Notes: generated from the letters alone by a model not told the origin. Positions 43,417 to 51,776 are shown, counted from the first letter of the stretch. The stretch: DNA of 51,811 nt from an uncultured Syntrophaceae bacterium (GCA_903893135.1 CAITLA010000273.1:1-51811), one strand, 5' to 3'. A program made the numbers and translations.

Positions 43417-45114
43417 TCATCTATCTGTTCCGTTGAAATTGACAGCACAATTTTTATTAATATCATCGGCTGTTGCCTGCGTATAGTTTATACTCGCAGG
43501 GGATGATGATATTGTACATGCAGCATCTGTAAAACCATTTATAAAGCCTGAAGGAAAAATGCTCGAAATAAGATTATTATTATTGATAGATTTACAATCG
43601 CCACCGTTAATGCGAAAATAAGCAATACTTCCAAGGTTATTCCAGACCCCATAGGCTCCGCATCCTTTGACAAAATTCATTCTAAATCTGTTTAGCGTTA
43701 TATTCTCCGTAGCCGTCCCCCCCGTCGCCGCTGTCCAGCCAAAGTAAAAGGAACTAAAATTCTGATGGAGAGTCGGACTCAATTCAAATGTTCTGCTTAA
43801 AGTAGGAGTATCAGCTGGAGCCATACTAGGATCATTATAATTGATTTTTGCATTTGCGTAGTTCGATTGATCATCAAACGTGGGACAGGTAATATCATTG
43901 ACCAAACATTGTTTCACCCACGTATCAAACCTATAGTCATAATTGCCCGCAGCATTTGGAGTCGTGCTGCGTGAAACTTCTATACGAAGGGCATAGATAT
44001 TTGTCGGCGCATTGCTTAACAACCAATTTGTTTCTGTTGGCCATAATGAGGAAGCGTCGAAGTAGCTTGTATCGGCACCATCTGTGGGCCTCCTTGAATT
44101 TCTCGGTTCAGTGGAAGTATCCGCACCATTGTTATGTCTGTTATCATCATAAGTATTACTCCCGACGGTAGCGGGAGAATGACATGCACTGATTGTATTA
44201 TCTCCCCAGAAAACGTAGGCTATATGGTTTCTAGAATCAAGTCCGTCACGTCTGCTGTCGGAAGCACAGACATCCGACGAATCGAAGTTCGGAAGTACAT
44301 CAAATTCAACGGCCATTTTTGGCGGTTGAATGCCCCTGCCTCCTTTGCCGTCTAGAAAGCTGGTCCCGGCCGAATCAACACGTGAATCACCGGCATACCC
44401 CAGCAATTCACCCCTGCCATTATCCCCCCCTACAGAATTGATGTCATTTTTAACACCATTCGTATCAACACCTTCACCATTAAAGAACGCAAAGGTAAAA
44501 CCGTCGCCGGTTGAACCTGAAGCAAATTGAAACACAAAAAAAGCCCGGAAACCTGTCCCCAAATCGCATTTGCCATTCTGACAATTTCCTTGAACAGCAC
44601 CCCCTCCATATACGAGGGTGCCGAACTTCCCAGACTCGCCTCCACCCAAACTAGCGGTTGTACCGGTTGAATCAACTTGCACAAAAGAAGAACCTGGCTG
44701 ATTTTTTGGCGTCATAGCAGCAAAACCGGAAATATCCGGTTGTGAACTGAAACCCGTTTTGGTGATAGAAATTTTTCTTTTTGCTTCCAATGGCGTCCCC
44801 GCATTGACGATGCCCGTTGATGTAATAATGTTTCCAATGATATCAAGCTGAAATTTATCATTACTTGGCAGTATCTGACCAGACTGGTTTTGTAATGTAA
44901 AAATTTTACCACTTGTATCCCCTAAATTTTTAATCAGGGCATAATCTTTCCCTGCCAGGGCAAGGGAATAGGCTCTATTTAAATTGTTCGCCCCCAGCTC
45001 ACCTAAAGCAGAGGATGAAGTCATGTAGAGTGCCCCGATAGCCAATGCGGCAATCGTGCTCATGGCAATAACGACATATGCAATTACATTTCCCTTTTTA
45101 TTTCCAAAGGACAT
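43417..45114 (-). CDS. PilX-like pilus-associated protein carrying a legume-lectin-like (ConA-fold) domain
   Basis: The N-terminus KKGNVIAYVVIAMSTIAALAIGALYMTSSSALGELGANNLNRAYSLALAG follows the PilX_N pattern. Lectin-like blocks: FRAFFVFQF, GDGFTFAFF, ELLGYAG, KMAVEFDVLPNF, NHIAYVF, FYFGWTAATGG. Confidence 0.7.
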   Translation of the reverse strand: MSFGNKKGNVIAYVVIAMSTIAALAIGALYMTSSSALGELGANNLNRAYSLALAGKDYALIKNLGDTSGKIFTLQNQSGQILPSNDKFQLDIIGNIITSTGIVNAGTPLEAKRKISITKTGFSSQPDISGFAAMTPKNQPGSSFVQVDSTGTTASLGGGESGKFGTLVYGGGAVQGNCQNGKCDLGTGFRAFFVFQFASGSTGDGFTFAFFNGEGVDTNGVKNDINSVGGDNGRGELLGYAGDSRVDSAGTSFLDGKGGRGIQPPKMAVEFDVLPNFDSSDVCASDSRRDGLDSRNHIAYVFWGDNTISACHSPATVGSNTYDDNRHNNGADTSTEPRNSRRPTDGADTSYFDASSLWPTETNWLLSNAPTNIYALRIEVSRSTTPNAAGNYDYRFDTWVKQCLVNDITCPTFDDQSNYANAKINYNDPSMAPADTPTLSRTFELSPTLHQNFSSFYFGWTAATGGTATENITLNRFRMNFVKGCGAYGVWNNLGSIAYFRINGGDCKSINNNNLISSIFPSGFINGFTDAACTISSSPASINYTQATADDINKNCAVNFNGTDR

Positions 45115-45117
45115 GGA

Positions 45118-45732
45118 TTATCCTCCCGTTTCCAGGTAGAGATTCACACGATCGGTAAAATTTATGACGGCATTCTCGGCGCCTTTTAACTGAAGCGTCA
45201 TTTCAATCATCGATGTAGTTGACGATGAATAGGTGGCCGATGGTGAAAATTTAAAGAATGCGTTAGTACTAGCAGGATCATAATAATAATAAGTTAAATT
45301 AAACGAAGTCACAGGCTCAACCAATTTGTCGCCACTACTACAGTCAGTAGCATTCATATTCATAATGAGAGGGGCATTTCCACCAGCCCAACATACGGCA
45401 ATTGGGGCTCCCCCTGCCTCTGGGCTCCGCGTGAATGCAATGGATGTTGCTTGCCCTGAAGAGACTGACTTCATATTGCTGAACTCTTTCTTTAGCCTTG
45501 CAATGGCCATCTGGCCCTGCTGTGTGATGACGGAGTTTTTCTTGGAAAATACATAACCTTTAGATATTGCTACAAGACCAACACCGGCGATGACGGCAAT
45601 AATTGTCATCACGACGATGGAAACGATTATCTCTATCAGTGTAAAGCCCTTTTGATTAATCGAGACCTTTGAAAATATGTGTTTTGTGTCATTCCGAGAA
45701 GCGAAACGACGAGGAATCTTGTGCACGATCAT
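45118..45732 (-). CDS. Minor (pseudo)pilin with prepilin-type N-terminal methylation motif; start codon uncertain
   Basis: NQKGFTLIEIIVSIVVMTIIAVIAG. The nearest canonical start (ATG at 45732) gives a leader of about 34 aa that is encoded by a hairpin repeat element. Confidence 0.65.
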   Translation of the reverse strand: MIVHKIPRRFASRNDTKHIFSKVSINQKGFTLIEIIVSIVVMTIIAVIAGVGLVAISKGYVFSKKNSVITQQGQMAIARLKKEFSNMKSVSSGQATSIAFTRSPEAGGAPIAVCWAGGNAPLIMNMNATDCSSGDKLVEPVTSFNLTYYYYDPASTNAFFKFSPSATYSSSTTSMIEMTLQLKGAENAVINFTDRVNLYLETGG

Positions 45733-45772
45733 CGGTTGTAAGATTTCTCCTTTCAGTCGAAATGACAAACTA
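45688..45772. repeat. Hairpin repeat units lying over the 5' end of a minor pilin gene
   Basis: GTCATTCCGAGAAGCGAAACGACGAGGAATC (45688-45718) plus AGATTTCTCCTTTCAGTCGAAATGACA. Both belong to the same GTCATT... family seen in the intergenic blocks. Confidence 0.7.
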
Positions 45773-45815
45773 AGAATCTTCATGCCTTCTTCTTGAACAA
45801 TTGGAGTATGATGTT

Positions 45816-50170: not shown

Positions 50171-50232
50171 TTTAAAACCTCCTTTTTATTTGGATAACAT
50201 TATAAAATACCGTAAATTTTGTCCTGATCAAC

Positions 50233-50248
50233 AGCATCTTTCATGCCA
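50233..50248 (-). promoter_or_regulatory. Sigma-54 (-24/-12) promoter of the major pilin gene
   Basis: The minus strand reads TGGCATGAAAGATGCT. GG and GC have the canonical spacing of TGGCAC-N5-TTGC. The element is about 64 nt upstream of the ATG and adjacent to a sigma-54 activator gene. Confidence 0.7.
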
Positions 50249-50411
50249 TGATAAAAGGGCTGAAGGGTGCAGGGTGCGGGGTGCGGGCATGATGAATAAT
50301 AACATATAGTATTTATTGGATATTATTTATTCGCAAAAGAACGATAAAAACAATTTTATAATCTGTTATTAACATTCAATAATTCAAATCATACACGGAT
50401 TGATGGATAAT

Positions 50412-51776
50412 CTACATTTTTTGTAGCTTTTTAAAGGATTCAGTGTCTATCCCATATTTCTTTATTCTATGCCAGAGACTTCGCTGATTGATGCCGAGGA
50501 GCTCAGCCGCCTTTACCTGAACGCCACCGGCGCGGGTCAAGGCTTCTATTATCAAACCTTTCTCAATTTCATCCAGGCGCTTATCAATAGTCAGAGAATC
50601 AGGCGAATCCGGACCTTGAAAAATATGATCTTTCCTGACACCCGCTATATTTGCAGGCAGATTCCCCGGCTCAATCAGCCCTGTATCCGTGAGGACTACT
50701 GCCCTTTCGATGGTATTCATCAGTTCCCTGACATTACCCGGCCATGAGTACCCGGCAATCATTTGAGTGGCCTCGGCGGAGAGCTTAATCGGTTTATGTC
50801 TTTTATCAAGAAAATATTCTGTAAGTTGGGGAATGTCTTCCTTCCGCTCTCTCAAAGGTGGCAGATAGATGGAAAACACATTTATGCGATAATAGAGATC
50901 TTCCCTGAACAGACCCTGCTTTACCATCTCGGCGAGGTTCTTATTAGTAGCTATTACAAAGCGGACATCAACCTTGATTGTCACCGTACCGCCGACCCGC
51001 TCAAACTCCTTCTCCTGGAGCACGCGCAATATTTTCGCCTGTGTTGCCAGGGTCATGTCTCCAATCTCATCGAGAAAAAGAGTGCCGCCGTTTGCCACTT
51101 CAAATTTGCCGATTTTCTGAGACGTGGCGCCGGTGAATGCCCCTTTTTCATAGCCGAAAAGTTCACTTTCCAGAAGACTCTCCGGTATGGCTACACAGTT
51201 AATTTTTACAAAAGGTTTTCCCCTGCGGAGGCTGTGTTCATAGACACCGGAAGCCACAAGTTCTTTTCCCGTCCCGCTTTCTCCCATTATGAGCACTGTA
51301 GAATCTGTGGGCGCCACCTTCATTACCTGCGCGAATATCTCCCGCATGATTCTGCTGTTTCCCACGATGCCGGGGAAGAACTCTTGTGCCTCAACTTTGC
51401 TCAAAACAGCGGCAATCTTGTCAAACACCTTTGCGTAATGTTCTACGTCACTCTTTGTGTTGTCATCGCTGACTGTTGGTTCGGAGAATGCCGGGAGACT
51501 TTCAGCCTTTTTGACCAACGCCATCACCGGTTTGAGTAATATTTTTGTAATCAGGAGACCTATCAGGTACGTAAATAAAAAAACGGTCATGACCCACAGC
51601 ACGAAGGACCATGTATGATTCCGCACTGCCTTCATATAATATTGAACGAAGTTGTCGGTCATGATGACCCACAGCAGGGAGATGGCGCTGAAGGTAAAAG
51701 GAATCAGTATATAAAGGCTGACTTGAATATATTTTTTCTTCATTTCATTGTGTGAGTTGCTTTTGTCAAATCCCAC
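50412..51776 (-). CDS. Sigma-54-dependent transcriptional activator (bEBP) with an N-terminal two-TM membrane anchor instead of a receiver domain
   Basis: AAA+ Walker A GESGTGKE, sigma-54 contact loop ELFGYEKGAFTGA, C-terminal Fis-type HTH AAELLGINQRSLWHRIKKYGI. Two N-terminal hydrophobic helices. The track's start is a GTG; the frame stays open to the window edge and an ATG lies at 51743, so the start is uncertain. Confidence 0.88.
   Translation of the reverse strand: MGFDKSNSHNEMKKKYIQVSLYILIPFTFSAISLLWVIMTDNFVQYYMKAVRNHTWSFVLWVMTVFLFTYLIGLLITKILLKPVMALVKKAESLPAFSEPTVSDDNTKSDVEHYAKVFDKIAAVLSKVEAQEFFPGIVGNSRIMREIFAQVMKVAPTDSTVLIMGESGTGKELVASGVYEHSLRRGKPFVKINCVAIPESLLESELFGYEKGAFTGATSQKIGKFEVANGGTLFLDEIGDMTLATQAKILRVLQEKEFERVGGTVTIKVDVRFVIATNKNLAEMVKQGLFREDLYYRINVFSIYLPPLRERKEDIPQLTEYFLDKRHKPIKLSAEATQMIAGYSWPGNVRELMNTIERAVVLTDTGLIEPGNLPANIAGVRKDHIFQGPDSPDSLTIDKRLDEIEKGLIIEALTRAGGVQVKAAELLGINQRSLWHRIKKYGIDTESFKKLQKM

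Follow-up and report, generated by a model that had tools for sequence, protein, structure and literature searches.

The DNA analyzed here is a stretch of 51,811 nucleotides (the window) from an uncultured Syntrophaceae bacterium (GCA_903893135.1, CAITLA010000273.1:1-51811), and our subject is a group of pilin and pilin-related genes at positions 43417-51776. Listing of the open reading frames (ORFs) of this region and scans against Pfam and NCBIfam confirmed the seven genes inventoried by an earlier note on this DNA, all on the minus strand (Table 1). In order of transcription, these encode a sigma-54-dependent activator (a bacterial enhancer-binding protein, or bEBP), a major pilin, a 695-residue membrane protein ending in tetratricopeptide repeats (TPRs), minor pilins of 164, 196, and 204 residues, and a 565-residue protein described below as carrying a lectin fold. 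The N_methyl prepilin motif was detected in four of the proteins (Pfam N_methyl; NCBIfam TIGR02532), and the class III signal, G/FTLIE followed by a hydrophobic helix, could be read from the sequences of the prepilin-type subunits. The last four genes form an arrangement of the HIJK type that is kept in related loci, with four consecutive pilin-like genes of which the last lacks Glu5 and has an extra domain.

The final 72 nt of the window translate as VLFFALAIFLPMWDLTKATHTMK followed by a stop codon, which is the C-terminus of a 408-residue T2SSF/PilC protein encoded on a public scaffold designated L001 (European Nucleotide Archive ERZ18628254, scaffold_119, 39 kb). L001 is 100% identical to the window across 10,963 nt and extends beyond the window end; in a look-up of public assemblies, the exact major pilin protein was present on at least 21 contigs. 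The genes found on L001 5' of the bEBP gene encode, in order, this platform protein (NCBIfam GspF, 354.9 bits; PilC, 316 bits), an MshEN+T2SSE ATPase, and an AAA_22 ATPase resembling ExeA/MshM, beyond which lie a secretin, two small proteins, one of them weakly GspM/PilO-like, and a PilM_2 protein of 628 residues. The AAA_22 and MshE genes meet on L001 in a run of N at about 5440-5640, which accounts for their appearance there as a single ORF of 1079 residues; sister contigs have two genes, of 518 and 566 residues. The readable N-terminus of MshE on L001 has KLGQYLFRQGIVSEQQIVDVLCRQ, which we take to resemble the MshEN motif that binds cyclic di-GMP.

A scan with one genome per species gave 57 loci encoding relatives of the 565-residue protein (L numbers below designate individual loci), and these were compared by tblastn against the proteins of the window and L001. 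The order secretin, AAA_22, MshE, PilC, bEBP, pilin, three minor pilins, and lectin protein is kept in at least 13 distinct genomes (examples are L003, L005, L006, L007, L009, L010, L011, L016, L017, L019, L022, L023, and L033). Homologues of the 565- and 695-residue proteins with named sources come from Syntrophales, Syntrophaceae, or Deltaproteobacteria metagenome-assembled genomes (MAGs). The earlier note had taken the cluster to be self-contained, without assembly machinery, and obliged to plug into machinery encoded elsewhere. Both statements arose from the window edge, since the platform gene ends inside the window and the rest is contiguous on L001 and in the related genomes just listed; the assembly genes that the earlier note proposed to locate are found directly beyond that edge. 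The cluster is therefore neither self-contained nor reliant on distant machinery.

With a probability of about 70%, we assign the region to a type IV pilus system encoded in one locus, of MSHA-like/T4aP-like composition and belonging to an uncultured Syntrophales bacterium, and take it to be the distal half of that locus. The complete locus, ordinary in appearance, would begin with a PilM/N fusion, PilO-like and PilP-like proteins, a PilQ secretin, an MshM/ExeA-like ATPase, an MshE-type extension ATPase, the PilC platform, and the membrane-anchored bEBP, and would continue with the sigma-54 promoter, the major pilin, a terminator, an accessory slot, four tip pilins of the HIJK type, and a convergent pair made up of a histidine kinase and a response regulator/cyclase.

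Table 1. Positions of the pilus genes, their regulatory elements, and the neighboring signaling pair in the window.
Feature	Position	Strand	Basis
PilC/GspF-type platform gene, 3' end (23 codons and stop)	51740..51811	-	translation
Sigma-54 activator (bEBP), 443 residues	50412..51743	-	Sigma54_activat, AAA_lid_14, HTH_8
Palindrome CTACAAAAAATGTAG over the bEBP stop codon	50412..50426	-	only match in window
Sigma-54 (-24/-12) promoter TGGCATGAAAGATGCT of the major pilin gene	50233..50248	-	single match in window
Major pilin, 148 residues, 12-residue leader then G/FTLIEI	49724..50170	-	N_methyl 1.6e-09; TIGR02532
Intrinsic terminator hairpin, 14-bp stem then T-rich tract	49585..49618	-	-25.9 kcal/mol, z -3.76
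695-residue protein, about 11 transmembrane helices and C-terminal TPRs	47139..49226	-	TPR families (Pfam); AlphaFold2 model
Minor pilin, 164 residues, first of four-gene set (H position by gene order)	46403..46897	-	N_methyl 2.2e-06
Minor pilin, 196 residues, with CBM5/12-like insert of about 60 residues (I position)	45816..46406	-	N_methyl
Minor pilin, 204 residues (J position by gene order)	45118..45732	-	N_methyl 1.2e-07
565-residue K/PilX-type pilin-like protein	43417..45114	-	AlphaFold2 model, Foldseek, family alignment
Convergent histidine kinase (313 residues) and response-regulator/class III nucleotidyl cyclase (331 residues)	41275..43208	+	HisKA+HATPase_c; Response_reg+Guanylate_cyc

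The open frame of the bEBP gene reaches 51776, and its likeliest start is the ATG at 51743, which gives the 443-residue protein that is called on public contigs; a 454-residue ORF with a GTG start was discarded after an exact look-up returned no record. The ATG overlaps the stop codon of pilC by 4 nt (ATGA), placing the activator in the assembly operon. The Pfam scan identified Sigma54_activat (244 bits, 6.3e-73), HTH_8 (50 bits), and AAA_lid_14, and no receiver domain; GAFTGA is visible in the translation, and the C-terminal helix-turn-helix is of the Fis type. All orthologues have kept two N-terminal hydrophobic segments (residues 5-30 and 44-78, approximately), with about 13 residues of loop between them and a conserved AE(S/N)LPxxP linker after the second. 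The shortness of the loop argues against a periplasmic ligand-binding domain; it would suit either a region that simply anchors the protein or one that senses within the membrane. The previous description of this protein as a membrane-tethered bEBP was borne out.

The single match to TGGCATGAAAGATGCT in the window was not significant alone, as 35 of 100 shuffled sequences gave at least one match of this type. Yet TGGCAY-N6-TGCW sits 68-109 nt 5' of the pilin start codon in 17/17 orthologous loci, and it is this conservation that makes the weak single match a well-supported sigma-54 promoter. No other sigma-54 promoter was found in the cluster. RNA folding located the terminator downstream of the pilin gene, and with a hairpin z score of about -3.8 the unit of promoter, major pilin, and terminator proposed earlier was likewise upheld. 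In the segment recorded at window 50412-50440 (minus strand), the palindrome CTACAAAAAATGTAG is situated about 165 nt 5' of the promoter, and together with the non-coding block that ensues, AT.A..CA.CAA, it is conserved across the orthologous loci; the block is conserved in nucleotide sequence among loci whose proteins are only about 60% identical. On this pattern we propose CTACAAAAAATGTAG as a candidate upstream activator site to which the bEBP would bind. The top NCBIfam match of the major pilin was the GspG N-terminus. We considered and rejected a conductive e-pilin, the 148-residue protein having by hand count about 8 aromatics in some 136 mature residues. Between the pilin gene and the membrane/TPR gene is a gap of 500 nt filled with G/C-rich, hairpin-like stretches.

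The bEBP, translationally coupled to pilC and held in the membrane by two transmembrane helices, would activate sigma-54 transcription of the pilin gene. PilS senses PilA within the membrane, and by analogy the bEBP may read a signal at the level of the membrane, for example the amount of pilin not yet assembled, and in this be the single-protein equivalent of PilS-PilR. A high ratio of major to minor pilin would be set by the strong terminator.

The 164-residue minor pilin has a weak match to the GspH N-terminus (30 bits against a cut-off of 80), and a profile of its family searched against the PDB matched pilins in the N-terminal helix only, FimU being found at an E value of 0.46. The 204-residue family profile likewise matched only the N-terminal helix. 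We have accordingly dropped the H and J labels for these two proteins: both carry the N_methyl motif, but the designations GspH/FimT-like and PilW/GspJ-like in the earlier note rest only on the common N-terminal helix.

The 196-residue minor pilin has an insert of about 60 residues (YPKWRSGT.Y..G..V.PT..NGHYYKC...GTS...EP.WP...DG.V.W), which is conserved in 12 close orthologues and missing from 2 distant ones. The relation of the insert to carbohydrate-binding modules (CBMs) is weakened by its scores, as the protein matched CBM_5_12 (PF02839) at 1e-4 and 22.7 bits, below the cut-off of 26.2, and the 4 of 14 family members that matched (E <= 0.01) were always below the gathering score. What remains of the CBM-motif minor pilin described previously is therefore a conserved, CBM5/12-like insert. 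The same repeat was found in two to four copies within the lectin proteins, of about 700-740 residues, of L024 (9965-12148), L025 (9977-12199), and L028 (4253-6358), from Syntrophorhabdaceae, Deltaproteobacteria, and Syntrophus MAGs, and two further copies are present in a 192-residue C-terminal fragment in L032 (9370-9948). By its occurrence inside lectin proteins of other loci, the repeat links the lectin and CBM-like modules in function.

It was only by a fold search that the lectin in the 565-residue protein was revealed, because searches against PDB sequences, with the single sequence and with a profile, returned nothing. The 197 matches in the family bear only the name hypothetical protein, with named sources among Syntrophales, Syntrophaceae, Desulfobacteraceae, Deltaproteobacteria, or Pseudomonadota MAGs. 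The AlphaFold2 model (pLDDT 70.8) comprises a long N-terminal helix (residues 6-62), a small pilin-like sheet, a large beta-sandwich at about 134-481, and a small C-terminal beta module; we delimit the lectin module at about 130-481. When this model was compared with the PDB by Foldseek, the top 50 matches were all legume (L-type) lectins, with E values of 3e-7 to 5e-6 and a probability of 1.0. Members of the family gave matches of their own to PF18483 (Lectin_L-type_dom; 5/30, best 2.3e-7) and PF00139 (Lectin_legB; 3/30), and one member weakly matched PilX_N. An alignment of 30 sequences has an invariant Gly8, then a hydrophobic helix without Glu at +5, and further along an AVEFD strand (E270, D272), N276, D290, and H297, all invariant, a pattern that resembles the metal site of legume lectins. 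Weighing against the assignment are the lack of any Pfam or NCBIfam match for the 565-residue protein itself, the modest target-normalized TM scores of 0.43-0.55 with long insertions, and the replacement by His, in some family members, of the putative sugar-binding Asp of GDGFTF. The fold and the family matches nonetheless bear out the lectin nature of this protein as noted earlier, and we read it as a modular pilin of the K position that carries an L-type lectin.

A Cys-rich C-terminal module (residues 485-565, approximately; window 43417-43670) with the pattern GCG.YGVWNN...YF.ING..C is present in only some members of the 565-residue family. It is missing from many homologues of about 475 residues and is duplicated in P0031.

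The four minor pilins would form a priming/tip complex in which the I member has the CBM5/12-like insert and the K member, without Glu5, has the L-type lectin. Because these two subunits carry such modules, the pilus tip is predicted to bind glycan, which would be on a partner cell, matrix, or surface.

The C-terminal third of the 695-residue protein consists of TPRs, and its first 430 or so residues match no family. The AlphaFold2 model (pLDDT 85.8) has a helical membrane domain at 19-424, then the TPRs, and a topology of about 11 transmembrane helices would place the TPRs in the periplasm. D48-D49, which follow the helix at 19-42 and are assigned to the first extracytoplasmic loop, are invariant in 30 homologues, and these together with R81-P82, K211-E212-T213, and E368/R370/Y372 (in E368-H-R370-N-Y372) are invariant or nearly so among homologues only 45-55% identical over their full length. 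The motifs described for TMTC proteins include M1 (DD), M2 (..YRP), M4 (KE(T/Q)xxT), and M7 (ERxxY), and full-length TMTC homologues have been reported in Deltaproteobacteria (PMC7801869, including Table 4). Comparison by eye matched the motifs of the 695-residue protein to M1, M2, M4, and M7 in that order and with similar spacing; M3 and M6 were not recognizable. The family has more than 3,000 matches, and among the matches listed six homologues are named protein O-mannosyl-transferase by the Joint Genome Institute (JGI) and two PilF.

The gene for the 695-residue protein lies near prepilin genes well beyond the present locus. Three of three distant homologues sampled (56-82% identity), including that of Desulfonema magnum (L065), adjoin a prepilin gene. 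We then examined 80 metagenome loci with homologues of 48-93% identity, of which 49 were assessable in having at least 600 nt on both sides. A prepilin gene was located within 1 kb in 36 of the 49, downstream and convergent in 28 and upstream on the same strand in 8. The prepilin motif gave one false positive in 43 kb of unrelated window DNA, so that about 2 of the 49 would be expected by chance. Beyond the paired pilin there are often genes for a bEBP, PilC, and MshE, and the opposite flank of the enzyme gene is frequently occupied by genes of glycosyltransferase families GT2 and GT4. The pairing extends across the sampled genomes of the Desulfobacterota type (Syntrophales, Desulfonema) and many unassigned metagenome contigs, and in the collection of papers searched none had both TMTC and pilin in it.

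The most economical reading of this protein is a pilin-directed glycosyltransferase using a lipid-linked donor, in which case it would O-glycosylate the pilin in the periplasm from a polyprenyl-phosphate sugar while the TPRs would hold the acceptor. Several observations weigh against this. No Pfam, NCBIfam, or PDB sequence match was obtained for the N-terminal domain, with the single sequence or with a 10-sequence profile, and Foldseek with the whole model says nothing about the membrane domain because TPR proteins filled the top 50; a GT-C fold for this domain consequently has as its basis motifs, topology, and names given by third parties. Within the pilus family, moreover, the gene is an accessory. 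It is present in the window, L003, L006, L017, and L064, and its share among the close relatives of the locus is only about 4 in 15, from which it follows that it is not needed for pilus function. We therefore describe the protein as TMTC-like and its place among GT-C glycosyltransferases as putative, not proven. For the TMTC-like GT-C/TPR enzyme of the earlier note this means that the TPRs and membrane domain stand and that TMTC-like motifs are recognizable by eye, but that neither hidden Markov models nor structure matches confirmed the GT-C assignment; the proposed role as pilin modifier gains support from the strongly conserved gene neighborhood.

In an alternative reading, the 695-residue protein is no pilin glycosyltransferase at all. 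It could instead be a TPR scaffold or an assembly factor similar to a pilotin, or else an enzyme with a different acceptor, for example lipid, exopolysaccharide (EPS), or other proteins of the envelope, whose gene merely keeps company with those of pilins. In favor of this, pilus assembly factors with TPRs are known, PilF/PilW/Tgl among them, and two homologues bear the name PilF; the gene is dispensable in many sister loci, and a GT-C catalytic domain was confirmed neither by hidden Markov models nor by structure. We nevertheless regard this alternative as rather unlikely, given the invariant acidic and basic residues at the TMTC catalytic and donor-binding motif positions (DD, RP, KET, E.R.Y), the predicted periplasmic location of the TPRs, and the repeated, tight adjacency to the major-pilin gene specifically, with GT2/GT4 genes often on the opposite side. 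Pilin glycosylation remains the preferred function of the 695-residue protein. Its extension to a large bacterial family of TMTC-like GT-C/TPR enzymes, acting as dedicated type IV pilin O-glycosyltransferases and paired with pilin genes under sigma-54/bEBP control, is one that we put forward tentatively and at somewhat less than even odds.

The space between the pilin gene and the minor-pilin operon (window 46898-49723) is a variable slot that contains the TMTC-like gene in some genomes and is empty in several others. It is occupied in L005 (6962-8158) by an AAA_14/DUF4143 gene and in L064 (8255-9444) by genes of the toxin-antitoxin type (PhdYeFM, DUF2283). At 1638-8103 of L066, a 4.1-Mb genome, an operon of GT2, GT4, GT4, and LPG_synthase_TM genes with the TMTC-like gene last converges on two pilin genes located after MshE-PilC-bEBP, and it looks like a complete pilin-glycosylation gene set.

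The assignment of the locus as a whole to a type IV pilus has evidence to weigh on both sides. The MSH model has mshA, E, G, L, and M as mandatory genes (Denise et al. 2019); MSH systems are reported to be encoded in single loci, all without a prepilin peptidase, and PilT is not locus-encoded in MSHA pili either (PMC6668835). Domain-level counterparts of all five mandatory genes are found here in one locus. The secretin exceeds the PilQ subfamily cut-off (327.7 versus 284.35 bits), is below that of the MshL equivalog (113 bits, cut-off 250), and fails the GspD model, and the alignment proteins are of the PilM/N/O/P type and not GspC/L. Two findings tell against a pilus: the ATPase and platform score slightly higher with type II secretion system (T2SS) models than with type IV pilus models, all below the equivalog cut-offs, and the readable 19 kb of L001 revealed neither a prepilin peptidase nor a retraction ATPase. 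On balance we call the locus an MSHA-like/T4aP-like type IV pilus, a name under which the subclass is not fixed.

A rival reading is a secretion pseudopilus similar to a T2SS or to Hps, a short piston whose GspK-like tip, with lectin and CBM modules, would push a glycoprotein or polysaccharide through the secretin. The best matches of the ATPase and platform are to GspE (577 bits) and GspF (355 bits), the major pilin is closest to the GspG N-terminus, the minor pilins follow the H-I-J-K order of gsp operons, PilT was not seen in the locus, and the NCBIfam scan gave faint matches to the HpsB/HpsC pseudopilins. Even so, we judge a pseudopilus quite improbable. The GspE, GspF, and GspG scores are without exception below equivalog cut-offs, the secretin and alignment proteins are of pilus type, and PilT and prepilin peptidase are likewise not locus-encoded in MSHA pili (PMC6668835); as for a polysaccharide cargo, the EPS locus in this window owns its Wza/Wzc-type export genes and is a non-conserved neighbor.

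That EPS locus occupies the first 41 kb of the window and includes SLBB/Wza-like, GNVR+AAA_31 Wzc-like, Wzy_C, flippase, GT4, GT2, and deacetylase genes. Its proximity contributed to the hypothesis, in the earlier note, of an integrated surface system, in which a stand-alone cassette of fibre subunits, with its apparatus encoded elsewhere, would produce a glycosylated, lectin-tipped pilus interacting with, organizing, or sensing the cell's own methylated polysaccharide. In keeping with that idea, there is no complete assembly gene within 43417-51776, a large Wzx/Wzy-type EPS locus with many methyltransferases is in the same window, and L011, the closest relative (57-93% protein identity), likewise has EPS genes (WecA/DegT) beside the cluster; but with the platform gene ending in the window and the machinery contiguous, with EPS genes absent beside the cluster in the 11 other genomes having at least 3.5 kb readable past the kinase (adjacency in 1 of 12 assessable genomes), and with the membrane/TPR gene absent from L011 where EPS adjacency is retained, it is very improbable indeed. 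The synteny comparison that the earlier note suggested has thus found no conserved linkage outside L011, and the picture of an orphan pilin cassette tied to an EPS locus is wrong and ought not to be propagated.

The most conserved neighbor of the pilus locus is instead the pair of histidine kinase and response-regulator/cyclase genes, which is convergent to the lectin gene and, with identities of 59-93%, adjoins the cluster in about 14 genomes (L003, L005-L011, L014, L016, L017, L020, L022, L033, and L064). The kinase has two transmembrane segments. A link to this two-component module, which would produce a cyclic nucleotide (cNMP) and of which the earlier note made little, is thereby supported, and the pair probably couples the pilus to cAMP or cGMP signaling. 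Beside the minor pilins and lectin protein of L004, a variant locus, we observed an ATPase of the form GAF-GAF-MshEN-T2SSE and a GAF-GAF protein with a guanylate-cyclase domain (5214-7508, minus strand, and 15913-18501, plus strand). Because GAF domains can bind cyclic nucleotides, a cNMP might control pilus extension in that locus.

Other features of the window were recorded in passing. At least seven separate genes with S-adenosylmethionine-dependent methyltransferase domains are interleaved with GT4/GT2 genes at 7131-22572 (plus strand), unusually many for one polysaccharide locus, and an AbiEii-type nucleotidyltransferase toxin gene (type IV toxin-antitoxin/abortive infection) lies between the Wzc-like and Wzy-like genes at 4560-5240 (plus strand). 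Short dispersed repeats of 26-37 nt with 93-100% identity occur in intergenic regions of the pilus cluster (49227-49723 and 46898-47138) as well as those of the EPS locus; further copies lie at 41062-41098, 37409-37434, and 18481-18509. They could be a small genome repeat similar to repetitive extragenic palindromes (REP) or miniature inverted-repeat transposable elements (MITE).

We regard the pairing of TMTC-like and pilin genes as the strong, apparently unreported, and reusable result of this work and the one most worth follow-up, as it offers a concrete candidate acceptor for a very large uncharacterized bacterial family with a cultured carrier, Desulfonema magnum. If the family does act on pilins, it would add a third class to the pilin-glycosylating enzymes, next to PglL/TfpO and TfpW, and would be a prokaryotic equivalent of eukaryotic TMTC enzymes, whose acceptors are likewise adhesion molecules; in the present locus the enzyme would work beside an activator that is a single component anchored in the membrane and that may directly sense the pool of pilin there. 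The locus is also a clear-cut case, in syntrophic Deltaproteobacteria, of a type IV pilus encoded in one locus, controlled by sigma-54, and provided with lectin-type tip modules, and it bears on the attachment of syntrophs to partners or matrices.

TfpW is a GT-C pilin glycosyltransferase of Pseudomonas aeruginosa that transfers D-arabinofuranose (bioRxiv 10.1101/2020.04.19.049825). Like the genes for TfpW and TfpO/PilO, the gene for the 695-residue protein, a polytopic and putative membrane enzyme, directly follows that of the major pilin and occupies an accessory slot of variable content, and a lipid-linked donor with transfer in the periplasm is presumed for each. A sequence relation to TfpW or TfpO was neither found nor searched for. 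The 695-residue family differs in its C-terminal TPRs and TMTC-type motifs, and whereas tfpW and tfpO come right after pilA, genes of this family are in most loci convergent with the pilin gene and not co-oriented. With eukaryotic TMTC1-4, of the GT-C/PMT clan, the protein has in common about 11 transmembrane helices and then TPRs, with DD after the first transmembrane helix, RP, KET, and E.R.Y; homology to TMTC1-4 was not demonstrated by any search that we ran, and the acceptor would be pilin and not cadherin.

ETEC (enterotoxigenic Escherichia coli) CofB is a modular minor pilin with a lectin module, as the 565-residue protein is read to be. Pilins with lectin modules at pilus tips are represented by Streptococcus sanguinis PilC, which has a ConA-like lectin (PMC9934059). 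As in PilC, a lectin-fold module is here grafted onto a pilin moiety expected at the tip with other minor pilins, but the module is of the L (legume) type, the subunit is of the K/PilX type without Glu5 and belongs to a diderm HIJK set, and there is an additional, optional Cys-rich C-terminal module. The 565-residue protein resembles the GspK/PilX tip subunit in two ways: its gene closes an operon of four pilins and is the largest of them, and its conserved Gly is followed by a hydrophobic N-terminal helix in which position +5 is not Glu. In place of the alpha-domain of GspK it has an inserted lectin beta-sandwich, and no structural match to GspK was obtained.

Regulators of pili that depend on sigma-54 are established in Geobacter, Myxococcus, and Pseudomonas (PMC3333781). 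Control of pilA by PilS-PilR in these genera has in common with the present locus a bEBP with GAFTGA and a Fis-type helix-turn-helix, encoded 5' of a -24/-12 pilin promoter. The bEBP of this locus differs from PilR in having no receiver and no adjoining gene for a partner kinase; the activator is itself anchored in the membrane by two helices and translationally coupled to pilC.

In Vibrio cholerae the order of the MSHA genes is mshIJKLMNEGF / mshBACDOPQ. The locus described here resembles that one in being a single locus with a PilM-like gene, two small genes, a secretin, an AAA_22 (MshM-like) ATPase, an MshEN ATPase, and a platform gene, after which come pilins and then a large last protein, and in the 19 kb of L001 it resembles MSH loci in having no prepilin peptidase. 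Unlike MSHA, its secretin matches PilQ and not the MshL equivalog, its platform and pilin genes are separated by that of a sigma-54 activator, and the host belongs to Syntrophales, outside the clades with described MSH. To the frame that it has in common with MSHA, the locus joins a one-component, membrane-anchored activator, tip modules of the lectin and CBM types, and an accessory TMTC-like enzyme.

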